IMG/VR virus record: IMGVR_UViG_3300036770_005504
Location: 1 to 64,000 of that record
Source: a virus
Length of the DNA stretch: 64,000 bases
Direction: 5' to 3' (one strand)
Shown here: positions 1,250 to 42,510 of the stretch, in pieces
How the letters are laid out: each line of letters starts with the position of its first letter
Position numbering within the stretch: the stretch's first letter is position 1
Notes under the pieces: model-generated
Seen by the model: the letters and a program-made list of their open reading frames with translations, nothing else
What the model was told of the DNA's origin: nothing
Database searches by the model: none
Program-made: the position numbers and the translations under genes

Positions 1250-1325
1250 TGGCCCGCCCGCCAGGATTCGAACCTGGAATAGAGGTTTAGAAGACCTCTG
1301 TGATCATCCCTTTCACCACGGGCAG
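1250..1325 (-). tRNA. tRNA-Arg(UCU)
   Basis: Cloverleaf: CTGCCCG/CGGGCGG acceptor, GAGGT-CTTCTAA-ACCTC anticodon arm, GGTTCGAATCC T arm, encoded CCA. Confidence 0.93.
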
Positions 1326-1703: not shown

Positions 1704-1777
1704 TGGTAGGGGTACCAGGAATCGAACCTAGACAAGCGGAATCAAAATCCGATGTGCTGCCATTGCACCATACCCCA
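1704..1777 (-). tRNA. tRNA-Gln(UUG)
   Basis: TGGGGTA acceptor, anticodon loop TTTTGAT, GGTTCGATTCC, encoded CCA. Confidence 0.92.
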
Positions 1778-1786
1778 TCTAATCTT

Positions 1787-1871
1787 TGGTGCGGATAGTC
1801 GGACTCGAACCGACAAGGCTTATGCCGAGGGATTTTAAATCCCTTATGTTTACCAATTTCATCATATCCGC
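1787..1871 (-). tRNA. tRNA-Leu(UAA)
   Basis: AGGGA-TTTAAAA-TCCCT anticodon arm, long variable arm, A73, CCA. Confidence 0.93.
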
Positions 1872-1883
1872 ATTTAGAAATTT

Positions 1884-2168
1884 TGGTGGCCCCACCTGGA
1901 CTCGAACCAGGAACCTAACGATTCAGATTTGTGTGACTTTCGCCACTCTCTGGACTATGCCTTCTCCATGTCATTTCTGATTTAGGAGGGTGCCGTCTAG
2001 TCTCTACACGTTCCAAAGTGATTTCTCACTGAGGCTTCGCTCGGCATTGCCTTATCATTTCTGACTTAGGTTTCACCGAATTTGACACCATTCACACAGC
2101 GTATTTCTACATCTGGTGCACGAATATTTACATGAGTCGTTTGCACTGACCAATTGTGCTATAGGGCC
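1884..2168 (-). tRNA. tRNA-Ile2(CAU, lysidine type), intron-split (exons 2168-2132 and 1923-1884)
   Basis: Spliced sequence GGCCCTATAGCACAATTGGTCAGTGCAAACGACTCAT|AATCGTTAGGTTCCTGGTTCGAGTCCAGGTGGGGCCACCA is a 77-nt cloverleaf with an Ile2-type GGCCC acceptor; tilS is adjacent. Confidence 0.9.
1924..2131 (-). ncRNA. Group I self-splicing intron (Azoarcus-like, IC3), 208 nt, no ORF
   Basis: Inserted after the anticodon U and ends in G; core segments ATGGTGTCAAATTCGG-GAAACCTAAG, GTGTAGAGACTAGACGGCACCC and GAAGGCATAGTCC-GAGTGGCGAAAGTCACAC. Confidence 0.92.
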
Positions 2169-2266: not shown

Positions 2267-2295
2267 ATTCTATACTTATTTGCAGTTTCTGTCAA
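2267..2295 (-). promoter_or_regulatory. Sigma70-type promoter for the tRNA cluster
   Basis: TTGACA-17 nt-TAGAAT on the minus strand. Confidence 0.6.
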
Positions 2296-2303
2296 CAACT
2301 TTT

Positions 2304-2948
2304 TTACCTTTTTGATGATTGATTTTTTACTCTGTCTGAATTGCTTAATTGTCGTTCTACCACACGACGCACCACACGATCAATTCCTGGATTGATATGC
2401 CTGATGTGTGGCATGACTTGATGTCGAATATAATTGCGTTGATATTGTAGATCACTGTTGCTTTGATCTTCACACCAAGGAACATCGTGATGCTGACACC
2501 AACTTTGTAATTGTTGCTTTTTGGTCAGCAAAAATGGTCGAATGACATGATTTCTTTGTAATGGTATGGTTTTACTCAATCCATGCATACTACTCCATAC
2601 ATATGTTTCTACACAATCATCGAGATGGTGAGCAGTTACAATGGGCATGTCCAGACTATCAAAAAAATTATAACGCTCAATTCTCCAGTGCTCTTCTGGA
2701 CTACGCGAACTATCACGCTGGTTGTGCATATATCCGATTATCAATGGTATTTGATGTTGATTACAATAATCGGCCACAAAATTTGATGCCCTTTCACTGT
2801 CATTGGTTCCATGGTGAAAAAATACTGCAGTGACATCATGGTTACGCTTGAGAAAATCCAGTGCTGCCATACTGTCTACCCCTCCACTGACACCAATACC
2901 TAACTGTCGGGGCAATCGTTGTGCTAGTTTGATCACGTTTTTATCCAA
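2304..2948 (-). CDS. tilS: tRNA(Ile)-lysidine synthetase (short, catalytic domain only)
   Basis: VSGGVDS PP-loop, R..RY, TAHHLDDCVET, IRPFL, EDQSN..YQRNYIRH. Confidence 0.92.
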   Translation of the reverse strand: MDKNVIKLAQRLPRQLGIGVSGGVDSMAALDFLKRNHDVTAVFFHHGTNDSERASNFVADYCNQHQIPLIIGYMHNQRDSSRSPEEHWRIERYNFFDSLDMPIVTAHHLDDCVETYVWSSMHGLSKTIPLQRNHVIRPFLLTKKQQLQSWCQHHDVPWCEDQSNSDLQYQRNYIRHQVMPHIRHINPGIDRVVRRVVERQLSNSDRVKNQSSKR

Positions 2949-2995: not shown

Positions 2996-3172
2996 ATGTT
3001 ACAATTTTTCAAAAATCTAACAAATAGATTACAGCAAAAAAGATTTTTTGTCAATGATTATTTTGCCAATATTGAGCAATATATAAAATCTCATAGGCCC
3101 AGCAATCATGCCGAAGTTGAAATGTTGATACGCAAATATGAAAGGAACAACATCAAATCATGGAAATACTAA
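2996..3172 (+). CDS. Small hypothetical protein, 58 aa (below ORF-track cutoff)
   Basis: MLQFFKNLTNRLQQ...IEQYIKSHRPSNHAEVEMLIRKYE..., downstream of TATAAATA at 2963-2970. Confidence 0.55.
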   Translation: MLQFFKNLTNRLQQKRFFVNDYFANIEQYIKSHRPSNHAEVEMLIRKYERNNIKSWKY

Positions 3173-3313
3173 ACCGTATATATCAAAAAATTATAGTTTT
3201 TTTTGAGATAGTAGCAGAAGCAAGAATTCGACACATTCAAGCCAATAACAGATACCGCGGTTATTATTGAAATAAACTTCATGGTCGAGGGTATCAAATA
3301 AATATTCTCGACC

Positions 3314-4234
3314 ATGAACAATACAATTGTCTGGAATGATGGATTAAACAATTATCGACACCATCAAATTTCTTTCCAAAATACACAGATACTTTATCAC
3401 TGTCATCTCGACGATGACCCAACCTCAACAAACAACCTAGATACTGCAATATCTCAAATACTAGAAACTTTTTGTAGTCAACCGATTGAACTATTGTATA
3501 GTGGTGGGCTAGACAGTGAATTATTATTGGTAAAGTTAAAAAAACTAAATTATCCAGTTCAAGCAATTACAATGAAATTGTATTGTCGTGGCTATCCTGT
3601 CAATACACATGATTTGTATTATAGTGAAAAATTTTGTCGACAGCATGATATTACACAAAAATTCATCGAACTAGACATTGAACAATTTTTCGAAAGCGGT
3701 CGTTATCTTGACTATCTGACCAAGTATTATATACAAGAACCACATGTGGCCACTCATTTTTGGATGTTTGAACAATGTGACAAATTTCCTGTGTTGGCTG
3801 GTGAATACACATGGCCCTGGGTGTCTGTACCAATTTTAAGTCCACATAGATTAGAATACAGTTGTTATGACCGTTATCTAGCTGACCATGGTATAACAGG
3901 AATTGGTAATTTTCTAAACTACAGTTATGATATTAATACTGCAATGATTTCTACTCACTGTGCTGTTTTTAAACAACACAATTTTATGTTAGATAATCGC
4001 AATTTACCTGTATTCAAAAAAAAATTCTACGATCAAATAAGTGATCATGATTTTGAAATACGTATGCGTAATTCAGGGTGGGAAAACCTGCCTAGATCTG
4101 TATTCAATAAAAATCGATATCGATTAGAATTAATACAACAATATCGACAAGTTGTTAAATCATCAATATCATGGTCAAAAAATCTAGCTGACATGTTAGG
4201 CGGAGAAATTTACTGTAATGATCGATACAACTAA
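3314..4234 (+). CDS. PP-loop (asparagine synthetase-like) ATP pyrophosphatase
   Basis: LLYSGGLDSE motif. Confidence 0.7.
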   Translation: MNNTIVWNDGLNNYRHHQISFQNTQILYHCHLDDDPTSTNNLDTAISQILETFCSQPIELLYSGGLDSELLLVKLKKLNYPVQAITMKLYCRGYPVNTHDLYYSEKFCRQHDITQKFIELDIEQFFESGRYLDYLTKYYIQEPHVATHFWMFEQCDKFPVLAGEYTWPWVSVPILSPHRLEYSCYDRYLADHGITGIGNFLNYSYDINTAMISTHCAVFKQHNFMLDNRNLPVFKKKFYDQISDHDFEIRMRNSGWENLPRSVFNKNRYRLELIQQYRQVVKSSISWSKNLADMLGGEIYCNDRYN

Positions 4235-32271: not shown

Positions 32272-32459
32272 CTTTCGATATCAGTGATATCAATTTTAAT
32301 TTTTGATTTAGATTCAAACTCAGCAGTGACTACAGATCCAATTCCACTGGAATTATCGAATATCAAATCTACATGATCAGGGTCATATTTTTCGAAAATT
32401 TCTAGTAATTTTTTAAATTCACCACGAGTCATTCGAAAAGATTTCATTACGTTCCCCAT
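32265..32459 (-). CDS. Hypothetical protein
   Basis: SSGIGS..DITDIESW small phage-protein pattern. Confidence 0.65.
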   Translation of the reverse strand: MGNVMKSFRMTRGEFKKLLEIFEKYDPDHVDLIFDNSSGIGSVVTAEFESKSKIKIDITDIESW

Positions 32460-33316
32460 TGATTTTTGAATAGTGGTACTTGAAGTCGATCGCTATATCT
32501 AAGACCGTTCTTCATTGCAAAGTCGGCAACACGTCGATTGTTTAAAGTATAGACACTTTCAACGCCTCCTACCGGCATGAGATAGCAAGGGCCTTGGAAA
32601 CCTTCTGCACGATATATGTCTAAAGTTTCTATAGCTTCTTCAGCATCATCTTCAGAGGCAACAACAAATTTAAGATATGTATAACCAACTTCCTCATATT
32701 CGCAGACAACGTCTGGGCGGATAGCTTCGTGTCGTTCCTCACCAGAGCAGCTAAGTTTAGCACTAACTGAAAATGTTACATCATCTCTGGATCTATCACT
32801 GCCCGACCAATTGACAAGATAGTTTTTAAATTCTGGTGTGAGTTTTTGAGTACCGTTGGTCTCGAAAGTGATTTCTTTAAGACCTGCCATCTTAGGATGA
32901 TTCAGTAGATCGGAATAAGCACGTTGCCAACCCAGCAATGGTTCACCGCCGGTGATTACTAAGTGTTCGTTTTGCCATTCTTTGTGTGGAAGGAGATCAA
33001 CAATATTTTGAGCTAGGCCATCAATCTCAACCAGTGGACTCAAATGTTTGAATTCTGGATAGACCGCAGCATAACTATCGCATCCTGTTTCGACTAATGG
33101 TAAACTTTTATAATCTTGATACCTATTAATATTATCAATAATAGAGACTACTTCAGGATTATGTGTTTCTTGATCTGGGATGGAGTTTTTGTCCCTGCCA
33201 AAGCCTTGACAACGAAAATTACAACCAAAAGTTCTTAGAAAGACACTGGGCACTCCCATATATCGGCCTTCGCCCTGAATAGAGTAAAATAGTTCCGATA
33301 TTTTAATTTTAGACAT
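32447..33316 (-). CDS. queE: 7-carboxy-7-deazaguanine synthase (radical SAM)
   Basis: ISELFYSIQGEG..VFLRTFGCNFRC, VITGGEP, ETNGT, LKFVV, RLQV. Confidence 0.88.
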   Translation of the reverse strand: MSKIKISELFYSIQGEGRYMGVPSVFLRTFGCNFRCQGFGRDKNSIPDQETHNPEVVSIIDNINRYQDYKSLPLVETGCDSYAAVYPEFKHLSPLVEIDGLAQNIVDLLPHKEWQNEHLVITGGEPLLGWQRAYSDLLNHPKMAGLKEITFETNGTQKLTPEFKNYLVNWSGSDRSRDDVTFSVSAKLSCSGEERHEAIRPDVVCEYEEVGYTYLKFVVASEDDAEEAIETLDIYRAEGFQGPCYLMPVGGVESVYTLNNRRVADFAMKNGLRYSDRLQVPLFKNQWGT

Positions 33317-33620
33317 GTTGATCCTTATTGATTGCCTGCCCATTGTCGCCTATGAAAATAGTTGACCATTTACGCAGTTTTGTTCTTTTGTTTACAGCAG
33401 CAGAATCTATGTTTGCTTGATTTATGAGATTATTTTCTACCAGCAGTTCTATCATACAGATTAAATCACCAATTTCTTCTTCAAGATGTTGACGATTATT
33501 TCTGTGATCTTTTGGGTTCATTCCTAAAAACCCAAATCTATTTACTTTACTAACTGCTTGGATTACCTCAGCACATTCTTCTTGCAATATAGCAAGTATT
33601 TCATCGGTATTGTCTATCAT
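33309..33620 (-). CDS. MazG-like pyrophosphohydrolase
   Basis: LQEECAEVIQAVSK..LEEEIGDL. Confidence 0.8.
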   Translation of the reverse strand: MIDNTDEILAILQEECAEVIQAVSKVNRFGFLGMNPKDHRNNRQHLEEEIGDLICMIELLVENNLINQANIDSAAVNKRTKLRKWSTIFIGDNGQAINKDQHV

Positions 33621-34393
33621 TTTTTAATTGCCTTCACACATAGATGCCATCCTAAATATTGTTTTATCGCCAATCTCATGGCCTCGGGCATGGCAGAAAA
33701 CCAAGGTTCTAAGACATAGTTACCACGACGATATTCTTCTACATTATACATGAAACAATGATTTTGTCTAATATCATTTATATCAAACAGCCCGGTAATT
33801 AACCAATGTATTTTGTCTACATCATATGTTTCTGCGTAGGGGCAACCGGCTTGAGCCTCATATTGATCAAGACCGGCTTGAATCATGGCAGATTTCCAAC
33901 TATGTTCAGCATAAACTAAAAATCTAAATTCTCCTTGGTCCTTGAGTAAGTTGTGGGCATTTTGAACTATCTGTCGTGGTTGTGGACTATGATGTATCAC
34001 TCCCATACTATAAACCAAATCAAATTGACCCAAATGTTTCAATTGTGACCAATCGGTGGAATCTAGACAAAAAAATTGTGCTTCTAATTGCTGAATTGAA
34101 AACCGTTTTCGACAAAGATCTACACTGTTTTGACTGATGTCTATGCCCACATATTCAGCGCCGTGGCGAACGAATTGCTCGGCATCAGTGCCAATACCGC
34201 ATCCAATTTCCAAAACTCTGCGCCCTTGCCAAAGATGAAAATTTGCCAATTCATGGATATGTGGTTCTACAAAATATCTACGATGAGTTATTTCGTTCCA
34301 ATATTGTGCAGTGTCAGGATCGGCCCGACTATGCAATACATTACAAGGTTGATTATCCCAGTATTCGACGATTTTTTGTTCTAAATTTTTCAT
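33617..34393 (-). CDS. Class I SAM-dependent methyltransferase
   Basis: VLEIGCGIG, GIDIS, FDLVYSMGVIHH. Confidence 0.88.
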   Translation of the reverse strand: MKNLEQKIVEYWDNQPCNVLHSRADPDTAQYWNEITHRRYFVEPHIHELANFHLWQGRRVLEIGCGIGTDAEQFVRHGAEYVGIDISQNSVDLCRKRFSIQQLEAQFFCLDSTDWSQLKHLGQFDLVYSMGVIHHSPQPRQIVQNAHNLLKDQGEFRFLVYAEHSWKSAMIQAGLDQYEAQAGCPYAETYDVDKIHWLITGLFDINDIRQNHCFMYNVEEYRRGNYVLEPWFSAMPEAMRLAIKQYLGWHLCVKAIKK

Positions 34394-35217
34394 TGATTAA
34401 CATCGATCCTAGTCAGTCGATTTTTAGTATCTGCAGCATACATTTTTGCCCAAATATCAATCTTGCCAGCACAACCATCTCGGAACCAATCACAAATTCG
34501 ATTTTCGGTTTTTTCGATATAATTGCAAATTTTGTTGGCATCGCGTAAACGAATCTCTCTCCAATTACTGTGATTAAAGTCACGGGGGTCGTTGTGATTA
34601 CCTTCTAACATGGGACGATTTTTGTATGTTTCGTCGTTGTTGAGACCAGTTAGATCAAATCTTTCATGATGAACAAATACTGGTATATCGACCATGATGT
34701 CTAGTAGATATGCAATATGACTGACCCATGCATCATTGATCTGATGTGGGCTGATATACCCAGTGACCTGTGTCCACTCACGGGGAATAATAGGAAAGAT
34801 AGCATAGGGATGTTGATTAGTAGTTTCGGCTCTTAAAACTCGAAACTGCCCTGTATATTTTTTAATTTCTAAATCCCAATCCTGTGTGTCCATCACTGCA
34901 TCGTCATTGTAAAAAAACAACCAATCACCTTGACTGATCCGGGCCAATGCATTGAGATATTCATTGAGTCGAATATAACCAATGGGATTAAATGCCATTG
35001 CAGTATACCCACATCGATATTGCGTCTCTAACAATTTTTTAAGATCGGTGGTGGCAAAATTAATTACTTCTTTGTCATCTCGATCTAATGCCAATAGTAT
35101 TTCGATTTGTGTGGGATCATGTGCTCGTGACAACAAAGAAACCAAAGATTTTTCCAAAGATTGTATTCGTCCACGAGTGGGTAACAGTATACTGATTTTG
35201 TATTTTTGTTGATTCAT
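34390..35217 (-). CDS. GT2-like (GT-A) glycosyltransferase
   Basis: ISILLPTRGR, LDRDD, FFYNDD. Confidence 0.8.
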   Translation of the reverse strand: MNQQKYKISILLPTRGRIQSLEKSLVSLLSRAHDPTQIEILLALDRDDKEVINFATTDLKKLLETQYRCGYTAMAFNPIGYIRLNEYLNALARISQGDWLFFYNDDAVMDTQDWDLEIKKYTGQFRVLRAETTNQHPYAIFPIIPREWTQVTGYISPHQINDAWVSHIAYLLDIMVDIPVFVHHERFDLTGLNNDETYKNRPMLEGNHNDPRDFNHSNWREIRLRDANKICNYIEKTENRICDWFRDGCAGKIDIWAKMYAADTKNRLTRIDVNQ

Positions 35218-35453
35218 AAAAAAGACTTTATCAAAGGTGGCAAATATATTATTGTAATTACTGTTTGAACAGTCAACAAACTATATTTTTTCCACATTAT
35301 AGCTTGTATTGCCCAACCTAAATTACTTAAAAAAAGAAACCAAATGTTTAATGGATATATGTTGAGTGAGGTCAATACAGCACCAATAATCAGTAATGCA
35401 GTAATACCCCACTCAAACCAAAATGTCCAGGGTTGCCTGAACAATTTTATCAT
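35214..35453 (-). CDS. Small membrane protein
   Basis: Three hydrophobic segments. Confidence 0.7.
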   Translation of the reverse strand: MIKLFRQPWTFWFEWGITALLIIGAVLTSLNIYPLNIWFLFLSNLGWAIQAIMWKKYSLLTVQTVITIIYLPPLIKSFL

Positions 35454-36145
35454 TTCATGTCTCTAGCTTCTTCGCGTGTGGGTGCTAGACTTACCAATGG
35501 AGTCAGCAGTAAAATAATAACCAATTTAAACAATGTTGACCCGGACACGATTCTTGCAATTGCAGTGTCAAATGCCATGACCGAACCACCGAGAATCATC
35601 GGGAAAACAATAAATGCCAAAATTGTAAAAAATACAGCATCAACTGGCAAGCTCAGTAAGTTACTAAAGAATGTTCTAGCCCAACTGCTGTAGTCACGAT
35701 CCCATAACCATTGATAGATATAAGTATTAACCCATTGACTAATAATAGTTGCTATCTCTGAACCTAATACGATTCCCAGACTCATTCGAAAAACTGCATC
35801 AAAATTCACACTGGGTCGAAAACTCGGGGCAGGCAAAAAAGTCATTGCATACATAAATGCTGCAATAGCTAAATTCAATACTACACCAATCAGGATTGTT
35901 TGTCGAACAATCTCAGCACCGGCCAGTTTGTGCAACATATCGCGAACCACAAATACCACAGCAAATAATAGTGCCCCGGCTGGTGTTACTACCCAACCAA
36001 AATCTAAAAACTTCGCCGCAGCAAAATCTGCCACTGTCATGGTCATGATCAGGGTAGCAGCTAATCCCAAAATCCAATAGAACGTTTTGTGATCTAATGT
36101 CATTGATGGATGATTTAAAAATTTATCATGTAATGAAGTTGTCAT
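35450..36145 (-). CDS. yhhQ: Queuosine-precursor (preQ0/preQ1) transporter, YhhQ/VUT family
   Basis: Multi-TM protein; AAKF..PAG...FVVRD, LGS...SQWVN, R...SN..S...DAVFF pattern; located among que genes. Confidence 0.75.
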   Translation of the reverse strand: MTTSLHDKFLNHPSMTLDHKTFYWILGLAATLIMTMTVADFAAAKFLDFGWVVTPAGALLFAVVFVVRDMLHKLAGAEIVRQTILIGVVLNLAIAAFMYAMTFLPAPSFRPSVNFDAVFRMSLGIVLGSEIATIISQWVNTYIYQWLWDRDYSSWARTFFSNLLSLPVDAVFFTILAFIVFPMILGGSVMAFDTAIARIVSGSTLFKLVIILLLTPLVSLAPTREEARDMK

Positions 36146-36179
36146 TTTTTTCCTTTTCTAGAATGTGTATTTAAAATTA

Positions 36180-36710
36180 TTACAAAGATGACTCGTATAT
36201 AGCACTATTGCCTGTGTGCTCAAAAACTTCTACCGAACGCAAACGAACATTAGCGCCCACAGGATAACGTGCTTCGAATAATCGACCATCTGGATGTGTC
36301 CACCCTCGCCCTTCTTGATATGCTTGGAGTATTTCGTTCATTGTTCGATATGCCAACTCAGCAAATTTTTCACAGCCCACAGCTTCTACAATCCGTAGAT
36401 CGCATACCCCACCTTGATCCTGTAGACCCAATTGAGCCATTTGCTTGAACATTTTGAGATGTGGATCATCCTGTGCAATGATCAGGGTATGATCAAATTG
36501 CCATTCGCTCCATTCCTTAAAGGCCTTAAGCCCGCCGAAATCCATGACCCAATTACGATCATCTAATGTTGAGCTTTCGAATACCAATCTGATTCCTATG
36601 CTATAGCCATGTAGAAGCGAACAATGGCTATGAGTCGATCGCCACTGTCTAAAACAGCAACTCAGTCCTCGATCATTGCCATAGGTTTTTGTTGATAGGT
36701 AAGTTGCCAT
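36180..36710 (-). CDS. queD: 6-carboxytetrahydropterin synthase
   Basis: CSLLHGY, WVMDFG.LK, FDHT, CEKFA, VEVFE. Confidence 0.88.
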   Translation of the reverse strand: MATYLSTKTYGNDRGLSCCFRQWRSTHSHCSLLHGYSIGIRLVFESSTLDDRNWVMDFGGLKAFKEWSEWQFDHTLIIAQDDPHLKMFKQMAQLGLQDQGGVCDLRIVEAVGCEKFAELAYRTMNEILQAYQEGRGWTHPDGRLFEARYPVGANVRLRSVEVFEHTGNSAIYESSL

Positions 36711-36717
36711 AACTTAG

Positions 36718-37410
36718 TTATTCCTCACGATTACCAAATAAGTTTAGTAGTGATAAGAATATATTAATGAAATTAAGATACAATGTCAATGCTCCTATAA
36801 TCTCAACATTGCCATTTCCTGCTAGACTAACCGATTCTCGAATACGTTGTGTATCCCAAGCAGTTAGTCCCAAAAAGACTACCACAGCAATGGCCGAGAT
36901 CACCATAGACATAACACTACTACCGATGAAAACATTGATGATACTGGCAATGACAACTGCAATCAAGCCCACAAACATAAACTGGCCCATACTTTCGAGA
37001 CTTTTTTTGGTAAAATATCCATAAAAGCTCATTGTGCCAAATAAAATAGCAGCCGCCATAAAGGCACTGATAATACTACCTGTGGTATAGACCATAAAAA
37101 TAGTAGCAGTGCTAATACCCATCAATGCAGCAAATCCATGCAGCATCAATAGTGCAATTTCACGAGGCGGGTTGGCATTTAATGCCATAGTGATGCCAAA
37201 AATTGCTGCCAATGGGGCAAAAATCACAATCCATTTGACCCATCCAGTAAACAAAAAGCTCATCAACGCTGGACTGGTGCTGATCAATAATCCCACAATC
37301 ATACTGGTCAAAACTGCCAACATCATGTGATTGTATACACGTAACATGGCAGAATTGATTTCACTAGCACTGCGATAAATTGATGCAGTTTCGATCGAGT
37401 TCATTAGCAT
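36718..37410 (-). CDS. Bax inhibitor-1/YccA family membrane protein
   Basis: 7 TM; LTAWDTQRI, GALTLYLNFINIFL.LL. Confidence 0.9.
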   Translation of the reverse strand: MLMNSIETASIYRSASEINSAMLRVYNHMMLAVLTSMIVGLLISTSPALMSFLFTGWVKWIVIFAPLAAIFGITMALNANPPREIALLMLHGFAALMGISTATIFMVYTTGSIISAFMAAAILFGTMSFYGYFTKKSLESMGQFMFVGLIAVVIASIINVFIGSSVMSMVISAIAVVVFLGLTAWDTQRIRESVSLAGNGNVEIIGALTLYLNFINIFLSLLNLFGNREE

Positions 37411-37424
37411 ATAATTATTCTCCT

Positions 37425-38111
37425 TTATCGATGACAGTTATTGACAATGTTCATAAATTCCAATCTGACAGAATTGTCAGTTTTGAACACCCCTCCAAGT
37501 TTACTGGTCACTGTGGAACTACCAGTATCTTGAATGCCTCTACTTTTTACACAATAATGTTGTGCATCAATTACCACTGCAATATTATCTGTTTCTAGAA
37601 TGTATTGTAGTGCGTGATAGATCTGTTCAGTCAACCGTTCTTGAATTTGAGGACGTTTGCTGAAATATTCAACCACTCGATTAATTTTACTCAACCCTAA
37701 CACTTTGCCATTGGGAATATAGGCCACGGTGGCTAGCCCATCAATGACAACTCCGTGATGTTCACAGTTACTTTGCACATTGACATTACGTTCTACTACC
37801 ATTTCGTCGTAGCGCATTTTATTATCCACTGTGGTGCACTTGGGGAAATTTTCTTCTTTGAGTCCAAAATAAATTTCATTGATATACATTTTGGCCATGC
37901 GGTTTGGTGTTTCTGCCAAACTGTCATCATTGAGATCCATGCCCACAGTTTTCCAGATTGTAGTAAATGCTTGCTCTAAGATATCAATTTTCTTTTTATT
38001 CTCCACAGATAGAGCTGTGTCGATAATGGGTGTTTCTACTCCCATTTTAATTAGATGTTGACGGATTTTGTGACCCAGGACGGGATCACATTTGGTTTTA
38101 TCGAAACTCAT
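37425..38111 (-). CDS. folE: GTP cyclohydrolase I
   Basis: ETPNRMAKM, SNCEHH, GLSKINR, RPQIQERLT, HYCVKSRG. Confidence 0.95.
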   Translation of the reverse strand: MSFDKTKCDPVLGHKIRQHLIKMGVETPIIDTALSVENKKKIDILEQAFTTIWKTVGMDLNDDSLAETPNRMAKMYINEIYFGLKEENFPKCTTVDNKMRYDEMVVERNVNVQSNCEHHGVVIDGLATVAYIPNGKVLGLSKINRVVEYFSKRPQIQERLTEQIYHALQYILETDNIAVVIDAQHYCVKSRGIQDTGSSTVTSKLGGVFKTDNSVRLEFMNIVNNCHR

Positions 38112-38191
38112 ATTTGTTCTCCTTACTCAAATTCTGAGATTGCTTGATAACGAAAATGTTGAGATCTATCATACCTCAACAATGATATTTA

Positions 38192-39370
38192 TTAATATTT
38201 TTCTTGACTAGTATATTTGCGATAATCGACACTATCACGACGCCAATGATCTGCCTGACCTTGCATAATATCAACAATTCTGTCAATGGTTTTATCAGTC
38301 CAGTCGCTGATCTTACCTTGATTTGCATGTGGTGATTCTAGTAATTTTTCCAGTTTGTTTAAGGCATCTGTCAATGACCAAGGAATATACATTCTTTCAT
38401 GGTCGTTAGCAAATGTTTCCGGAAAACTTCGATATGCAGGATATAAGACATTGCAGCCTAGTGCATCAGCTTCACTGACTGTATTGGAAACCCAATCTTG
38501 CAGAGCGCAATTAAAGAGGACTCGTGTATTGTTTAATAAGGCATAGTAGTCATTTTTCGTGAGATTGGTATAGATCTTAAGTAGACCTTGTTGTTCTAAC
38601 TCACGAGCTTGTGTGACATGATCGAGATTGTTACTACGCAGTTCAGAGGCACCAGACAGCACACAGAATTCCACAGGCATATTGGGATAACGTCGGTGCC
38701 ATTCTTTAATCAAGTCCATATAAAAGTCGGGTTGTTTTTCCTGATCCCATCGTGCTGCAAATCCCACACGCATAGCACGCTGCTCAAATGGTCTAATGTC
38801 TTTTACTCGTTCTTTTACTTCTTCTTTGCCAAATGCAAGACCGCTGACATTATAGATAGGAGCAGACCATCCGGCAATGCGCATATGCGCTACCATTTCT
38901 TCATTGGTGGCCAATACTCCATCTACGAATTCGTTGACCATTTTTTCATAAAGGCCCATCCATTTCGACATACCCCACACATGAACGAAATCGTCCGGAT
39001 CAATGGATTGAGCAAGACAGCGGACAAAAATGCGAGGACGCTGATCAGCATTAATTTGATTGAGAATATAAGGTAAGCTCTCGATACCGGGTTGAAACAT
39101 GTCTTCAAAAAATATGACATCATTGCAGTCGATCTCTCCGTTACGCATCATTTGAACAAGATTCATCATTTGGCTCATGCTAAAATAACTGCGACCATGA
39201 GCATCTAACACTTGTCCTACAGAAATAGCTCGAGTGTTATCTAAAGTGGACCCAGGCACATATACTACGTTTAATCCTCTACGGTCAAACACACGACGAT
39301 TCCATTCTGTCAGCTGTAGAGTGTATCTTTCTTGGTATGGTTCGAGTCCCATATAGATCAATTTTCTCAT
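38192..39370 (-). CDS. GT-B (GT4-like) glycosyltransferase
   Basis: VGFAARWDQEKQP, ALQDWVSNTVSEA..LGC..LYP; start at MRKLIY. Confidence 0.78.
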   Translation of the reverse strand: MRKLIYMGLEPYQERYTLQLTEWNRRVFDRRGLNVVYVPGSTLDNTRAISVGQVLDAHGRSYFSMSQMMNLVQMMRNGEIDCNDVIFFEDMFQPGIESLPYILNQINADQRPRIFVRCLAQSIDPDDFVHVWGMSKWMGLYEKMVNEFVDGVLATNEEMVAHMRIAGWSAPIYNVSGLAFGKEEVKERVKDIRPFEQRAMRVGFAARWDQEKQPDFYMDLIKEWHRRYPNMPVEFCVLSGASELRSNNLDHVTQARELEQQGLLKIYTNLTKNDYYALLNNTRVLFNCALQDWVSNTVSEADALGCNVLYPAYRSFPETFANDHERMYIPWSLTDALNKLEKLLESPHANQGKISDWTDKTIDRIVDIMQGQADHWRRDSVDYRKYTSQEKY

Positions 39371-39588
39371 GCCAGTCCTTCGAGTTTTTTTAGATCTTCG
39401 GCCCATTGATTTTTAAAATTTTTGCCGGCTGCATATTTACTATATTGTTGCCAGGCATAGCTGCGAAAGTTATTGATATCATTTTCACTATAACGATATC
39501 CATACTCACGACAGAAATTGAGATATTTTTCTAGCAGATCAAACACTTCAGATACTTGTGGGTTATGTTGAATTTTAATTTTTGACAT
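39367..39588 (-). CDS. Hypothetical protein
   Basis: ORF in operon. Confidence 0.7.
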   Translation of the reverse strand: MSKIKIQHNPQVSEVFDLLEKYLNFCREYGYRYSENDINNFRSYAWQQYSKYAAGKNFKNQWAEDLKKLEGLA

Positions 39589-39594
39589 AATATA

Positions 39595-40026
39595 TTACCT
39601 TGATTGTGGATATTGAATAAAACAACCGTTCTCGCCGTCCTCGGACACTTCGATCCAGACATCTCGTTGAGGATATCGAGCCGAAATTTGTAAATAAAGA
39701 TCGTCGGCTATCATTTCGCAACTTTTGTAATCTAGTTGCAAAACACCTTGTGGGCCAGAATACAACCCTTCAAGCCATCTTTTAAATTGTATGAATTCAA
39801 TGTCTCGGTCGTCTGTAAAGACATCAATCCAAACACGAAAGTGAAAAATATGCCTATGAGGGCTCGCCAAAAAACTGACGTCATACTGGTCTCCTGTGGC
39901 TAGTAATGGATCTGTGGCAGCAGCCGGGTAACAATGAATACCTTCTTTTTGAAAGGTCACCCAGATTTTTCGTTGTGCAACAGCAATGGTATGATCGATT
40001 TTGATTCGTTCAGAATGTGTGATCAT
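39595..40026 (-). CDS. QueD-paralog T-fold protein (DpdL-like candidate)
   Basis: EGIH.YP, FLASPHRHIFHF (LxxxHRHxF), RDIEFI, SCEMIA, VSEDGENG. Confidence 0.65.
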   Translation of the reverse strand: MITHSERIKIDHTIAVAQRKIWVTFQKEGIHCYPAAATDPLLATGDQYDVSFLASPHRHIFHFRVWIDVFTDDRDIEFIQFKRWLEGLYSGPQGVLQLDYKSCEMIADDLYLQISARYPQRDVWIEVSEDGENGCFIQYPQSR

Positions 40027-40295
40027 GATTTTAATGACTCCAAAGTGATAATTTTTGTAATAGTATCAGAAATATCATCGCTGTTGGCAATGACATACAA
40101 ATTATAATTATGTCGATCTATTTTATTGACTTGTTCGGGAGCAATAACTTGAATTACTGTGCCACCATTGGCACGGTATACATTAAATCGAATAGGTCGA
40201 TCGGTCAATGATATATAATCATTGTCCACCGGGGTTGTCAAATTGCCGAGCAATTCTTGCTTTTTTGGAAATATTTTACGCCATAACTTTTTCAT
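40023..40295 (-). CDS. Hypothetical protein
   Basis: ORF in operon. Confidence 0.7.
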   Translation of the reverse strand: MKKLWRKIFPKKQELLGNLTTPVDNDYISLTDRPIRFNVYRANGGTVIQVIAPEQVNKIDRHNYNLYVIANSDDISDTITKIITLESLKS

Positions 40296-40831
40296 AATGG
40301 TTGATCTTGGTTGTATTTAGACCAATCAGTAAATACTGATCGATCCGTAAGTTGATTGACATAATGACACCATACTCCGGGGTTACTGCAATTAAAATCT
40401 CGATCGTCGATTTTTAATACTGCATTATACCCCAGTTGACTTAGATACGGTATTGGTGCACTGATCATGGGAATAAATTGATTGTTTTCACACAAACCAC
40501 TTTCAAGTAGCCCTTCGACTTGGCTGATATTGATATCTAAACTACACCAAAATCCATGTGCTAAACAAATTTCGATCATATTTTCCCATTGACTCCAATT
40601 TTTGTAGTCGTTGGTAGTTATTGTAATCGGGAAACTGCGATCAGCACCGAAGTAAATATGTGTGATATGTTTTTGACAATCACTGTCCTGTTTTGACTGT
40701 TGAACAATTTCAAGAATTTTTTCAACTGGTTGAACCCCGATTACGAACAATGTAGTTCTACCGTAAGCAGGAGTGTGTTCGACCTCTTGACCAATAAAAA
40801 AGTCTCTGTCTTGGTGATTGGGTCTATTCAT
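40292..40831 (-). CDS. Hypothetical protein coupled to the DpdA-like gene
   Basis: ATGA overlap with the upstream gene. Confidence 0.75.
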   Translation of the reverse strand: MNRPNHQDRDFFIGQEVEHTPAYGRTTLFVIGVQPVEKILEIVQQSKQDSDCQKHITHIYFGADRSFPITITTNDYKNWSQWENMIEICLAHGFWCSLDINISQVEGLLESGLCENNQFIPMISAPIPYLSQLGYNAVLKIDDRDFNCSNPGVWCHYVNQLTDRSVFTDWSKYNQDQPL

Positions 40832-42507
40832 TGATTTTCTAATACCTCTAATAAAGTTTCATCAAATTGTGTTTGTTCTTGCTCTGGTGATTCCAGCTCA
40901 TCAGGATTTTCTGCTTCAAACAATGAATTAAACACAGATTGATTCGGTCTCATCAGTCGTTTGCCAGTAAATCCTCTTGTGCCGATAATTAGATCAAAAC
41001 AAGATTCATAGTATGATATACGTTCGAGACTTTTTTGTCTAGTTTTTTGGCTAAACACATCATCCACAATAGATCGAAAATCAAACTGCTCGTCAGTTTT
41101 ACCAGACAACATCAGTGGCATTAGTCCATTTTCATACTGTTGATTGGCAGTTTGAACTGCATTGATATGATGCCAAACATTATGAGACATCAATAATGCA
41201 TAGCTAAAACTATCCCAACTGGTGTTACCAATGTTGCCTAATTTATTTTTATCTGTGGGCCCATACACACAGATGTCAGAAATTTTCAATAATTTCGAAA
41301 CTGGGCTGTCATCAAATGTATCATGTATACCATCTTGTAACACCACATCACGAAATGCTCTTTGGTCGGTTTTATACTTTTTATCATCGGCAGTGGGTTC
41401 CATACGATAAACCCACTTGGATCTATGTTGACATTTGTTGTGAGTATATAACTGTCCATTTGCTGTGGCCAAAAATGGGCTGGCGCAATCAAAACTGATA
41501 GAGAATCGAGGATTGTGATATTTTCTTACTGAATTTTGTATATCAGTTAATAGACAAGCCCATTCCAGTTTACTGGTTCCTAAAAAGTGCATCCAGTCAT
41601 GAACTCCGGGTACCAATAAGCCATCATAGATGATATTCACAAGTCTTTTCAATACCAAATGAACATCACACATGTTTTGGCCACCCATGGCCCAACCATC
41701 AAAATGTCGTCCTGGATATTGTTGAGGATCACAATAACCTTTCATAGTTTGATACCAATCCTCGGCACTATCGTGATTATCTCCCTGTAATACATTTAGA
41801 ATTCGTGTGCCACCGTTTTCGATACCACGACGATTGTTGATAAAATATTCATTGTTATATCGTGTGGCATCAATGGCTTCTTTGAGTGTGGTGATACCAC
41901 AGGCTTGACCTGCTGCTTTGTCATGTATTACCCAGGTAGGAATATCTAATGTCATACTATAATCAGCAATGGTATCAAGCCATGTCAGCACCGATCGACG
42001 ACGTTGTTCTGTGTCTTTGAGAGACTTTTGATATTCTGCCACTGGATCTATTGTTTTGGTACGACCTTTTTTGTTGATCTGTGTTTGAGTTCCTAGTGCT
42101 GCAAGATTGGCAATATGTGCTGCAACTTCGTTACTATTAGGTGCACGCCATTCACCTGGCCATCGTCCTTTGGCTATTTGAAAGCCACCACTATCACCTA
42201 ACATAAAAGACCCGGATTCTCTATTGCGGACCATATCCTCGCTGGGGTCGGATTTGGTCAAGTCCAAATTAGCATGCCCAGCACTATACAAACTCCATTT
42301 GTAGGGGAACATAGATTTTTGATTATTAAGCCAATTTAGTTGTTCCATATCATGAAGTCCCGCGGGCATACGAGCAGGATCTACATAGTTTTCTACTCGC
42401 TGCCGACCAATGAAAGTTGCATAAAATCCGCTAATAGCGGGCAAGAAAATAGCCCATTTGCTGAGACCATTTTGATTCAATTGTCTTTGTGTAAAGTTAT
42501 GTTGCAT
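40828..42507 (-). CDS. dpdA: TGT-fold guanine transglycosylase (DpdA-like DNA 7-deazaguanine insertase)
   Basis: LGDSGGFQ, MTLDIP, NVLQG, GWAMGG, HFLG and SFD TGT motifs; clustered with folE, queD and queE. Confidence 0.75.
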   Translation of the reverse strand: MQHNFTQRQLNQNGLSKWAIFLPAISGFYATFIGRQRVENYVDPARMPAGLHDMEQLNWLNNQKSMFPYKWSLYSAGHANLDLTKSDPSEDMVRNRESGSFMLGDSGGFQIAKGRWPGEWRAPNSNEVAAHIANLAALGTQTQINKKGRTKTIDPVAEYQKSLKDTEQRRRSVLTWLDTIADYSMTLDIPTWVIHDKAAGQACGITTLKEAIDATRYNNEYFINNRRGIENGGTRILNVLQGDNHDSAEDWYQTMKGYCDPQQYPGRHFDGWAMGGQNMCDVHLVLKRLVNIIYDGLLVPGVHDWMHFLGTSKLEWACLLTDIQNSVRKYHNPRFSISFDCASPFLATANGQLYTHNKCQHRSKWVYRMEPTADDKKYKTDQRAFRDVVLQDGIHDTFDDSPVSKLLKISDICVYGPTDKNKLGNIGNTSWDSFSYALLMSHNVWHHINAVQTANQQYENGLMPLMLSGKTDEQFDFRSIVDDVFSQKTRQKSLERISYYESCFDLIIGTRGFTGKRLMRPNQSVFNSLFEAENPDELESPEQEQTQFDETLLEVLENQ

Positions 42508-42510
42508 TAA

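Follow-up and report, generated by a model that had tools for sequence, protein, structure and literature searches.

A candidate phage translation module: a tRNA(CAU) gene split by an apparently Azoarcus-class group I intron beside a short tilS-like gene

In 64,000 nucleotides of viral DNA (IMG/VR record IMGVR_UViG_3300036770_005504, positions 1 to 64,000; hereafter the window), a tRNA gene with a CAU anticodon is interrupted by a 208-nt group I intron and preceded on the same strand by a short gene resembling tilS. We consider it very probable that these elements form a phage translation module, in which a TilS made up of the N-terminal domain and a tRNA-Ile2(CAU) split by a self-splicing IC3 intron would serve AUA decoding, with the intron as a tolerated passenger. 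Introns of this type are ordinary, but there is very little documentation of them in the tRNA genes of phages. The tilS-like neighbour adds to the original prediction.

Results

Anatomy of the split tRNA gene

The tRNA(CAU) gene runs from 2168 to 1884 on the minus strand and comprises three parts:

2132..2168, minus strand: 5' exon, 37 nt, covering the acceptor arm, the D arm, the 5' side of the anticodon stem, loop bases CU and anticodon CAU (ARAGORN -i)
1924..2131, minus strand: group I intron, 208 nt, first base G 2131 and terminal (omega) G 1924 (RF00028)
1884..1923, minus strand: 3' exon, 40 nt, from AA of the anticodon loop through the 3' side of the anticodon stem, the variable loop and the T arm into the acceptor 3' strand

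The default ARAGORN run reported six tRNAs and did not call this gene. With introns allowed (-i), the program returned tRNA(cat) c[1884,2168] and put an intron of 208 nt at gene position 38, right after the anticodon. This call and the sequence itself bear out the original prediction of two tRNA halves 208 nt apart, separated by an insert that directly follows CAT and ends in G. Because standard tRNA finders skip this gene, phage tRNA repertoires and the codon-usage arguments built on them are incomplete. The original prediction gave sense-strand letters without naming a strand; all features described here are on the minus strand.

The 5' exon ends in CTCAT (last base 2132), and the 3' exon opens with AATC and closes with CCA, A73 and an encoded CCA both being present. 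The junction cannot slide, because the end letters of exon and intron differ at both sides. The insertion point separates nt 36 from nt 37, U being the -1 base and G the omega base, and the same site is occupied in all 53 cellular and all 8 other viral tRNA(CAU) genes examined. Folding of the joined exons (2168..2132 plus 1923..1884) gave a clean 77-nt cloverleaf. Contigs in two DNA runs join 1923 to 2132 exactly and skip the 208 bases; they represent tRNA genes of other organisms that lack the intron and have the same junction as the window.

Structure and conservation of the ribozyme

Rfam model RF00028 was matched in full (model positions 1-253, window span 1931-2139) with a score of 54.0 bits, 4 bits above the gathering score of 50, and with E-values of 6.2e-11 over the 64-kb window and 3.6e-13 in a local search. 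In a hand-drawn P1-P10 model, 65 of 65 pairs are canonical in the window. Its elements are as follows:

2119..2134, minus strand: P1, exon CAU (2134-2132) and intron G1 against the internal guide CGUG (2122-2119)
2093..2118, minus strand: P2 hairpin with a GAAA loop and two single-base bulges (model and folding)
2084..2089, minus strand: P3 5' strand GGUGUC, pairing with 1989-1994
2040..2080, minus strand: P4-P5 domain, with P4 UUCGGUG/UGCCGAG, J4/5 AAA, receptor-like CCUAAG..UAAGG in P5 and a GAAA loop
2009..2039, minus strand: P6/P6a with a GAAA loop (model)
1998..2002, minus strand: P7 5' strand GACUA, pairing with 1953-1957 and crossing P3 to give the core pseudoknot
1989..1994, minus strand: P3 3' strand GGCACC (model and covariation)
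1964..1988, minus strand: P8, capped by GAAA and containing the receptor-like CCUAAA..CAUGG (model)
1953..1957, minus strand: P7 3' strand UAGUC (model and covariation)
1925..1951, minus strand: P9.0 (AGA/UCU) around P9 (GUGGC-GAAA-GUCAC), just 5' of the terminal G

Ordinary folding recovered P2, P4, P5, P6a, P8, P9.0 and P9 unaided (MFE -54.2 kcal/mol, z -2.17). We assessed covariation in a MAFFT alignment of 59 distinct relatives using the structure drawn from the window sequence, a procedure that favours the unslid register: 89.9% of cells were paired, against 28-37% when the partner was slid by 1-3 columns. Changes on both sides were seen in 33 of the 65 pairs, and none of 500 shuffles reached any of five covariation measures. 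Two helices cross in the core, P3 (6 of 6 pairs, with compensatory changes in three) and P7 (5 of 5 pairs, the last of which is A-U in 49 of the rows and U-A in 10). Both are canonical in the window and 100% paired across the 59 rows.

The remaining helices varied in how evenly they were kept. Paired fractions were 97.5-97.9% in the three helices of the P4-P5 domain and 100% in P9 and in the outer four pairs of P8, whose second pair is U-A in the window and usually A-U elsewhere. The second pair of P6 is G-C in the window and in 16 of the 58 rows with letters there, and C-G in 42 of the 58. The inner two P9.0 pairs covary; the outer one is found in just 2 of 59 rows. Seven of the 10 P2 pairs changed on both sides, and the low paired fraction of this helix (75.3% of cells in the 59 rows) is due to the mixing of two length types of P2 in the MAFFT alignment. 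At the level of single columns, the window departs from the consensus at 7 of 132 (those with at least 90% consensus in the other 58 rows); four of these departures are inside the intron, each in a helix with a compensating partner. All 89 columns that are invariant in the 58 relatives are also kept in the window, and the omega G (1924; alignment column G216) is invariant in 59 of 59 rows.

The guide GTG (intron positions 11-13) pairs with exon CAT, and a second pairing is possible between ATT (positions 7-9) and AAT of the 3' exon. The first of these pairings, P1 with its G-U wobble, stands as originally described: U.G is present at the 5' splice site in all 59 relatives and the helix is 99.1% paired. 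The second, P10, is possible in the window but weak across relatives, with 59.9% of cells paired. GAAA loops in P2 and P9 had likewise been noted together with the receptor-like motifs CCTAAG..TAAGG and CCTAAA..CATGG; all are present, but GAAA caps five helices (P2, P5, P6a, P8 and P9), and the helices that hold the motifs are P5 and P8. Among relatives, CCTAAG in P5 is invariant and the GAAA of L9 nearly so, and the P8 motif of the window is off consensus. In this class, GNRA loops on P2 and P9 are the putative docking partners of 11-nt-type receptors in P8 and P5, respectively. We rejected the five GAAA loops as a special feature; relatives likewise cap these helices with GNRA loops. Overall, the insertion site after CAU, the U.G pair, the terminal G and the P3/P7 core confirm a group I intron, which looks intact and for which self-splicing is predicted.

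Proposed splicing pathway and RNA evidence

By analogy with the Azoarcus pre-tRNA, folding of the precursor would pair exon CAU with the GUG guide of the intron, placing the U.G wobble of P1 at the splice site. Free guanosine held in the P7 pocket would attack after U36, and the terminal G 1924 would then occupy the same pocket, aided by P9.0 and a weak P10. Exon ligation would give the 77-nt tRNA with the anticodon loop CUCAUAA. C34 would be converted to lysidine, probably by the phage TilS, after which the tRNA would be charged with Ile and read AUA. Splicing, lysidine formation and a benefit for AUA decoding are inferred; the gene anatomy, the family membership, the conservation and covariation of the ribozyme, the tilS neighbour and the existence of alleles lacking the intron are observed.

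Run search and read mapping did not detect spliced RNA. The one RNA run that shared sequence, X10, contained just two contigs, of a relative's intron, covering positions 1949-2122. Because the loose end at 2122 reads exon-CTCAT and then intron, these represent unspliced RNA or DNA carry-over, and they are evidence neither for nor against splicing of the window gene. Runs from freshwater, lake, marine and lagoon samples shared only small fractions, and we draw no conclusion on habitat from them.

A decaying intron that splices poorly, in a tRNA copy that is a pseudogene or barely expressed while the phage uses the host tRNA-Ile2, would fit the lack of spliced RNA in the RNA data examined, an RF00028 score near threshold and a P10 that is weak in the family. 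Decay is harder to reconcile with the intactness of all 65 modelled pairs, with retention of the U.G, the terminal G and all 89 invariant columns, with the compensation of the four intron deviations, and with exons that form a perfect cloverleaf with encoded CCA. We regard it as improbable and favour an intron that still splices.

Relatives of the intron in bacteria and phages

We compared 92 genome loci, a set from which Azoarcus is absent. Seven ARAGORN calls among the relatives had wrong boundaries or a wrong anticodon; boundaries were moved by 2-3 bases by eye in L002, L006, L008, L070 and L072, and L020 and L047 were removed ahead of tree building, alignment and the identity tables. Intron length among the relatives is 188-239 nt with one exception of 427 nt (L066), which was excluded from the tree and from alignment A1. 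Two of the 11 matches of a first viral pattern scan (L004 and L011) lie in other, coding-like DNA, where neither Rfam nor the tRNA search made a call; we discarded them. Among the matches listed in the pattern scan, tRNA introns are frequent in IMG/VR contigs.

In an IQ-TREE phylogeny of 79 introns, the window intron falls inside a clade, supported at 96/95, of 62 tRNA(CAU) introns, 47 of them from Betaproteobacteria (including Rhodocyclaceae and Zoogloeaceae) and 10 viral. Phage introns are intermixed with bacterial ones in this tree, and well-supported branches force at least two viral origins. The closest cellular relatives are 83% identical in the intron and 86% in the exons. A sister intron lies in a viral tRNA-Asn(GUU) and has a guide that matches that tRNA.

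In the part of Williams 2020 that we draw on, this clade is classed as Ile2.5Ug with isotype models, within a scheme of 21 classes in all. The layout of 37 + 208 + 40 nt compares with 39 + 205 + 40 nt reported for Azoarcus in the portion of PMC13168695 used here. Tree and layout together indirectly support assignment to the compact IC3 'Ile2.5Ug' (Azoarcus) class, in line with the original prediction, the comparison being with relatives other than the BH72 sequence itself. The description of the intron as AT-richer holds in a mild form, its G+C being 45% against 45-59% in the listed cellular tRNA(CAU) introns. Most likely, the intron arrived with, or moved among, tRNA-Ile2 genes common to Betaproteobacteria and their phages, and would persist in the phage tRNA-Ile2 gene as a tolerated passenger.

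Phage nature of the record

The IMG/VR record is a linear fragment of 73 kb that CheckV rates 21% complete. In a PHROGs scan of 54 large ORFs of the window, most had no match and the matches were to replication and nucleotide genes of phage type, PolB (phrog_262) among them; a dCMP deaminase is also encoded by the record. Its last 9 kb carry an endolysin, two Rz-like spanins, virion structural proteins and a head morphogenesis protein. G+C is 35-41%, about 37% overall, and a megablast search of GenBank phages with the first 20 kb as query returned no match. The IMG/VR assignment, PolB, endolysin, spanins and virion proteins support the viral context claimed originally and point to a large AT-rich uncultured phage as the source.

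A contig of cellular DNA from Betaproteobacteria, or a genomic island wrongly filed under viruses, with an ordinary bacterial Ile2.5Ug intron, would explain why tilS and tRNA-Ile2, both core bacterial genes, occur together with an intron and exons 83-86% identical to betaproteobacterial ones on an incomplete linear fragment. We consider this origin extremely improbable given the exclusively phage-type PHROGs matches among mostly unmatched ORFs, the endolysin, spanin, virion and head morphogenesis genes, a G+C lower than the 45-59% that the cellular tRNA(CAU) introns themselves have, and a TilS of 214 aa, truncated relative to the 317-464 aa of solved bacterial enzymes. A phage source is retained in what follows.

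The tilS-like neighbour and the identity of the tRNA

Around the split gene, the minus strand carries in order a short TilS, tRNA-Ile2(CAU), tRNA-Leu(UAA), tRNA-Gln(UUG) and tRNA-Arg(UCU):

2304..2948, minus strand: tilS-like gene, its 214-aa protein limited to the N-terminal PP-loop catalytic domain, with an SGGVDS motif
2267..2295, minus strand: TTGACA-17-TAGAAT in the gap from tilS to the tRNA, agreeing with a sigma-70-like promoter at 11 of 12 consensus positions
1787..1871, minus strand: tRNA-Leu(UAA), next in the cluster (ARAGORN and Rfam)
1704..1777, minus strand: tRNA-Gln(UUG) (ARAGORN and Rfam)
1250..1325, minus strand: tRNA-Arg(UCU) (ARAGORN and Rfam)

The tilS-like gene ends 135 nt upstream of tRNA(CAU) on the shared strand. 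Its protein scores 130.4 bits with TIGR02432 (lysidine_TilS_N; cut-off 93.6) and 126 bits with PF01171, and it covers only residues of about 13-228 of solved TilS chains (317-464 aa). The gene probably encodes the candidate lysidine synthetase for tRNA-Ile2(CAU); because the C-terminal domains of solved TilS proteins are absent, activity of the 214-aa protein on tRNA(CAU) is only putative. The promoter-like site is a consensus match only, in a region with 12 such sites against 9.7 expected. No homing nuclease can be named, because the intron (1924..2131) contains no ORF and neither of the small neighbouring ORFs (942-1235 and 1348-1653) matched anything in Pfam or PHROGs.

Once spliced, the tRNA agrees with E. 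coli ileX at 61 of 77 positions and with metT and metU at 55 of 77, a small margin. It has an elongator cloverleaf, with C4-G69 and C5-G68 in the acceptor stem and AACGA/UCGUU as anticodon stem. Initiator tRNAs lack a G1-C72-type pair and have three consecutive G-C pairs in the anticodon stem; here G1-C72 is paired and no such run is present, which argues against an initiator.

The similarity to ileX and the TilS gene directly upstream favour tRNA-Ile over tRNA-Met, in agreement with the original prediction. If the gene instead encoded an elongator tRNA-Met(CAU), the PP-loop enzyme would have another substrate. ARAGORN labels every CAU tRNA as Met, the identity to ileX exceeds that to metT by just six positions, and the PP-loop family includes other tRNA-modifying enzymes, with a weak TtcA match (E 3e-4) for this protein. 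Yet the enzyme lies above a TilS-specific equivalog-domain cut-off, tilS is directly upstream of tRNA(CAU) in four viral contigs including the window, and the intron belongs to the clade that the isotype models in the consulted part of Williams 2020 place in Ile2.5Ug. Moreover, ATA is frequent in the phage, at 27% of Ile codons (19.1 per 1000). A tRNA-Met is in our judgement quite improbable, and we retain tRNA-Ile2. Codons TTA, CAA and AGA of the three neighbouring tRNAs are likewise frequent.

Recurrence of the tilS-tRNA pair and intron-free alleles

A tilS gene followed by an intron-bearing tRNA(CAU) is also found in viral contigs G003/L006 and L116, and in viral contig L139 the tRNA(CAU) that follows tilS is uninterrupted. 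The L139 tRNA is identical to the spliced exons of L006 at 76 of 77 bases, and intron-free alleles exist beside intron-bearing ones in related phages. The TilS proteins of phages that share the arrangement are only 54-56% identical to that of the window, and retention of the arrangement over this distance is a further point against a decaying intron. Elsewhere, TilS was present in 1 of 10 other records checked (nine IMG/VR contigs, all fragments, and GenBank LR756501); absence from the other nine says little, because IMG/VR records are fragments. No tRNA lies within 2.5 kb of tilS at 22 of 25 phage TilS loci, which weighs against the proposed module.

The original prediction had raised a possible route for the spread of tRNA introns, and as a possibility this would fit the mixed phage and bacterial tree. 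In an extended form, large freshwater and subsurface phages of Betaproteobacteria would shuttle the intron among host and phage tRNAs, reaching new ones by a change of guide, and tilS with a split tRNA-Ile2 would be selected as a unit whose anticodon loop is hidden until splicing. The interleaved tree, the 76/77 exon match with and without intron, and the sister intron in tRNA-Asn(GUU) fit such a scenario, which we hold to be unlikely. Were it true, a CAU loop that is unformed before splicing might limit mischarging with Met ahead of lysidine formation, or escape the anticodon nucleases of the host.

Discussion

The Azoarcus tRNA-Ile(CAU) intron shares with the window intron the type of host gene, the site directly after CAU, U at -1 and the omega G. 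Both introns are compact and ORF-less (205 and 208 nt, with exons of 39 + 40 and 37 + 40 nt). The helix set P1-P9, with GNRA loops and receptor motifs of the CCUAAG type in P5 and P8, appears to be common to the two. Unlike that of Azoarcus, the window intron is phage-borne and tilS-linked and has a lower G+C (45%). It also differs in a P2 of the form 'GUGCACC...GUGUGAAUGG', common to only some relatives, in having GAAA in all five capped loops, and in slightly varied receptor motifs (UAAGG; CCUAAA..CAUGG). With it, the best-studied small group I ribozyme gains a natural variant that is AT-richer and apparently intact and for which dozens of relatives show covariation.

In the sections of a 2014 review drawn on here (PMC3984707), all phage introns then known are in protein-coding genes and none in a tRNA gene, which agrees with the original statement that known phage introns are mostly in protein genes. 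The td, nrdB and sunY introns of T4 and those of Twort and SPO1, as treated in those sections, resemble the window intron in being self-splicing group I ribozymes of large virulent phages; they interrupt protein genes and often carry a homing endonuclease ORF, whereas the window intron is ORF-less and interrupts a tRNA. A literature search for the period after that review found no report of an intron in a phage tRNA gene. Two cyanophage papers considered as such reports (PMC7431792 and PMC8557907) were set aside, as they contain ordinary tRNAs and a psbA intron. The present case indicates that a phage tRNA gene can carry an intron of what appears to be the Azoarcus class.

The Pseudomonas jumbo phages MIJ3 and PA5oct encode TilS, according to the consulted part of PMC6892783. 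Like the source of the window, they are large phages with a G+C far from that of the host, a lysidine synthetase homologue of their own and several tRNAs. The window differs from MIJ3 in that its 214-aa, N-domain-only protein is encoded immediately upstream of the gene for its presumed substrate, which has an intron; the same part of the MIJ3 paper reports neither tilS-tRNA linkage nor a tRNA intron. A minimal phage TilS with its tRNA-Ile2 would offer a testable module for AUA decoding by an AT-rich phage whose host has different codon habits, and the 214-aa enzyme may be useful for finding the enzyme parts needed in tRNA recognition. Related phages with and without the intron could serve as a natural system for intron gain and loss.

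IC3 introns also occur in the anticodon loop of another tRNA, with viral examples that include one beside the tRNA-Ile2 of L116. These are like the window intron in class, but they lie after U34, inside the anticodon, and differ from it in tRNA, insertion point and clade. Relatives with the same core are found in phage protein genes as well, among them the ribonucleotide reductase gene of Enterococcus phage EF1, a capsid gene in KT997847 and Alteromonas phage AD45-P1.

A group I intron interrupts a phage tRNA(CAU) gene

Default ARAGORN found six tRNAs in the window and overlooked the split tRNA(CAU) gene; when introns were permitted, it called tRNA(cat) at c[1884,2168], on the minus strand, with a 208-nt intron from gene position 38, immediately 3' of the anticodon. 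The original prediction of two tRNA halves around a 208-nt insert placed right after CAT and ending in G was borne out by this call and by the sequence itself, from which the parts were read as follows.

Parts of the split gene and its neighbor (all minus strand)
2948..2304, -, TilS homologue, 214 aa, 135 nt upstream of the split tRNA on the same strand
2168..2132, -, 5' exon, 37 nt, 3' end CTCAT
2131..1924, -, group I intron, 208 nt, G at both ends
1923..1884, -, 3' exon, 40 nt, AATC...CCA

Because the flanking letters differ at each side, the intron boundary cannot slide. The spliced exons form a 77-nt cloverleaf with all stems intact, A73 and an encoded CCA. A covariance-model search, proposed with the prediction, matched Rfam Intron_gpI at 1931-2139 (-) over the full model length with 54.0 bits, above the gathering score of 50 bits (E-value 6.2e-11 for the whole window, 3.6e-13 in a local search). 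By lengths, the 37+208+40 nt layout matches the 39+205+40 nt given for Azoarcus in PMC13168695. The feature is genuine: a group I intron of the Azoarcus class, to all appearances functional, splits what is probably the phage's tRNA-Ile2 gene. It is of interest for its phage setting and for the minimal tilS that adjoins it.

Gene content marks the source DNA as a piece of a large phage. The IMG/VR record, of which the window is the initial 64 kb, is linear, with 73,044 bases and 21% completeness by CheckV, and G+C in the window is 35-41%. When 54 large ORFs were scanned against PHROGs, the majority had no match and those that matched were phage-type, among them PolB, dCMP deaminase, exonuclease, a Lon-like protease, a QueE-like protein and GTP cyclohydrolase. 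The last 9 kb of the record add an endolysin, two Rz-like spanins, virion structural proteins and a head morphogenesis protein, along with PhoH and a clamp loader. It is these phage-type matches, lysis and virion genes included, that identify the record as a large-phage fragment.

The predicted ribozyme fold is conserved among relatives

We drew a P1-P10 model by hand on the window sequence, in which all 65 pairs are canonical and P3 and P7 cross in the usual pseudoknot.

Helices of the hand-drawn model (minus strand)
P1, exon CAU plus intron G1 with CGUG (intron 10-13), U.G at the splice site
P2, bulged hairpin with GAAA loop
P3, GGUGUC/GGCACC
P4-P5, contains CCUAAG..UAAGG
P7, GACUA/UAGUC
P8, contains CCUAAA..CAUGG
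P9.0 (AGA/UCU) and P9, 5' of the terminal G

Ordinary folding by itself gives P2, P4, P5, P6a, P8, P9.0 and P9, with a minimum free energy of -54.2 kcal/mol (z = -2.17 against shuffles). We then examined the model across 59 distinct introns aligned with MAFFT, each with 8 exon bases per side. Standard pairs occupied 89.9% of 3708 cells, compared with 28-37% when the 3' partners were slid by 1-3 columns, a comparison that favors the unslid register since the model was derived from the window's own sequence. Both sides had changed at 33 of the 65 pairs, and none of 500 shuffles matched any of five measures. P3, P7, outer P8, P9 and P6 were 100% paired, so that the P3/P7 pairing on which the original prediction depended is present in the window and throughout its relatives. 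The predicted pairing of the guide GTG with exon CAU through a G-U wobble likewise held as P1, which was 99.1% paired with U.G in 59 of 59 rows.

Pairing was weaker at P10 (59.9%), at the outer P9.0 pair (2 of 59), at a single P6a pair and in inner P2, where the alignment mixes two P2 length types. The proposed P10 was therefore upheld in part: three base pairs of AUU with exon AAU are possible in the window, but the helix is weak among relatives. Similarly, the GAAA loops and receptor-like motifs that had been claimed are all present, but GAAA occurs on five helices rather than two, and the receptor-like motifs lie in P5 and P8. At 7 of 132 columns, three in exons and four in the intron, the window differs from the consensus shared by at least 90% of the remaining 58 rows, and all four intron positions have a compensating partner (G9-C18, A32-U37, C77-G84 and U153-A175). 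Such conservation is the pattern expected when purifying selection maintains a functional fold.

An adjoining minimal TilS supports tRNA-Ile2 identity

The 214-aa ORF upstream scores 130.4 bits against TIGR02432 (lysidine_TilS_N; cut-off 93.6) and 126 bits against PF01171, and carries the PP-loop motif SGGVDS. It aligns solely with the first 200-odd residues of solved TilS proteins (317-464 aa), and so comprises the N-terminal catalytic domain without the C-terminal domains. TilS converts C34 of tRNA-Ile2 to lysidine, upon which CAU reads AUA; PMC6892783 cites Suzuki and Miyauchi 2010 for this, and itself describes a phage TilS in jumbo phage MIJ3.

The spliced tRNA is identical to E. coli ileX at 61 of 77 positions and to metT at 55 of 77, and has the C4-G69 and C5-G68 pairs, which matter to TilS. 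The upstream TilS, the greater identity to ileX and these two pairs support a probable assignment to tRNA-Ile2 rather than tRNA-Met. ATA makes up 27% of Ile codons in the 54 ORFs (19.1 per 1000), and the next three tRNAs decode TTA, CAA and AGA, which account for 29% of Leu, 80% of Gln and 30% of Arg codons, respectively; this codon use fits a role in tRNA supply. A promoter-like TTGACA-17-TAGAAT (11/12 consensus, purely a pattern match) lies between tilS and the tRNA. For the window's gene, we infer splicing, lysidine formation and expression. The sole RNA run sharing words with it yielded two contigs bearing a relative's intron, one of which reads into an apparently unspliced 5' junction.

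The tilS-tRNA(CAU) pair recurs with and without the intron

Among ten other records checked, one encodes TilS (54% identity to the window's), and there tilS ends 20 nt upstream of an intron-bearing tRNA(CAU), locus L006. With the window's TilS as query, IMG/VR yielded 25 loci at 51-62% identity. On L116, a 94.5-kb viral contig, tilS is followed by two adjacent split genes, tRNA(CAU) (3168-3445; intron of 201 nt) and tRNA-Leu(UAA) (3744-4035; intron of 204 nt); at 51.6 and 62.1 bits, respectively, both introns exceed the Rfam threshold. On L139, a 201.7-kb viral contig, tilS precedes an uninterrupted tRNA(CAU) at 3147-3223, identical to the window's spliced exons at 66 of 77 positions and to those of L006 at 76 of 77. 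L139 and L006 therefore form an intron absence/presence pair: in related phages, one tRNA gene occurs both uninterrupted and split, and the junction falls exactly at the predicted site. The locus with the closest TilS (L115, 62%) shares the window's tRNA order, Leu-UAA, Gln-UUG, Arg-UCU, and has in the Ile2 slot an odd 88-nt tRNA(CAU) of unrelated sequence with a long variable arm (L115:4018-4105). At the other 22 of the 25 loci there was no tRNA within 2.5 kb of tilS. In contigs from two DNA sequencing runs (X1 and X3), 1923 directly abuts 2132 and the 208 bases are absent; these contigs carry tRNA genes from other organisms that lack the intron, with likeness of at least 85%.

Viral introns and cellular tRNA(CAU) introns form one clade

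Scanning IMG/VR with a 22-letter core motif gave 11 loci, nine with introns within tRNA genes (eight tRNA(CAU), three of them with identical introns, and one tRNA-Asn(GUU)), all exceeding the Rfam threshold; the other two were chance matches and were excluded. In species-representative genomes the motif occurred at 92 loci. After five ARAGORN boundaries had been fixed by eye and two calls removed, this cellular set comprised same-site introns in 53 tRNA(CAU) genes, nearly all labeled Betaproteobacteria, as well as a related intron in cyanobacterial tRNA-Arg(CCU). An IQ-TREE tree of 79 introns united all tRNA(CAU) introns and the viral ones in a single 62-row clade (support 96/95). In the tree alignment, the window's closest row (80% identity over 200 columns) is viral, as is its weakly supported sister in the tree (84/74); in pairwise comparison with cellular genes, the intron reached at most 83% identity and the exons 86%. 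Well-supported branches give the ten viral rows at least two origins, and the best tree gives six.

The tRNA-Asn(GUU) intron, at L002:230-499 (-) on a viral contig, belongs to the same clade and lies 3' of the anticodon. ARAGORN's label for this gene, Pro(cgg), was a miscall. The intron's guide GAC, displaced by one base relative to the MAFFT alignment, matches GUU, an apparent case of retargeting to another tRNA.

Phage tRNA introns are widespread in sequence data

The 2014 review 'Bacterial group I introns' (PMC3984707) places all phage introns then observed in protein-coding genes, despite the many phage tRNA genes. Williams 2020 mapped 5292 tRNA introns in bacterial genomes, assigned the four classical classes to IC3 and named the Ile2.5Ug class, with phages outside its treatment. 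Our literature search turned up no published case of a phage tRNA gene split by a group I intron, and two cyanophage papers matching the subject described none.

A second IMG/VR scan, with a P7-region motif, gave at least 121 loci on contigs of which some may be cellular; at least 82 of these had the motif inside an intron-containing tRNA call by ARAGORN. By ARAGORN's labels, the majority of the matches listed were tRNA-Leu(UAA), with CAU, Lys, Thr, Ser and Pro also present. In GenBank LR756501, a published, unannotated 735-kb uncultured phage, ARAGORN with introns permitted likewise calls a tRNA-Leu(UAA) split by a 205-nt intron (L014:1427-1717); the core of this intron is 73.8% identical to the window's over 145 query bases, and the intron falls below the Rfam gathering score. 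Given these motif-bearing split tRNA calls and LR756501, phage tRNA group I introns are widespread in sequence data, yet, as far as we found, undescribed in print.

Other observations

In T4, a homing endonuclease gene lies at a comparable place between tRNA genes. The small minus-strand ORFs between the window's tRNA genes, 942-1235 (97 aa) and 1348-1653 (101 aa), had no Pfam or PHROG match, and these searches gave no support for a homing endonuclease.

At 32447-43980 (-), the window has a cluster encoding a QueE-like radical SAM protein, a methyltransferase, a glycosyltransferase, GTP cyclohydrolase and a 489-aa protein that matches PHROGs labeled homing/HNH endonuclease, with a weaker match to Mom-like DNA modification. 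The cluster resembles a module for DNA modification of the 7-deazaguanine type.

Group I introns that lack annotation at the matched site were also seen outside tRNA genes, in records of cultured or named phages. Alteromonas phage vB_AmaP_AD45-P1 (KF005317) has one between two 'hypothetical protein' CDS (L013:1450-1704, 55.7 bits). Deep-sea phage KT997847 has two (L016:1448-1628 and 2157-2337; 78 and 76.9 bits) at a split 'capsid protein' CDS: one separates the pieces, the other lies where the second piece ends.
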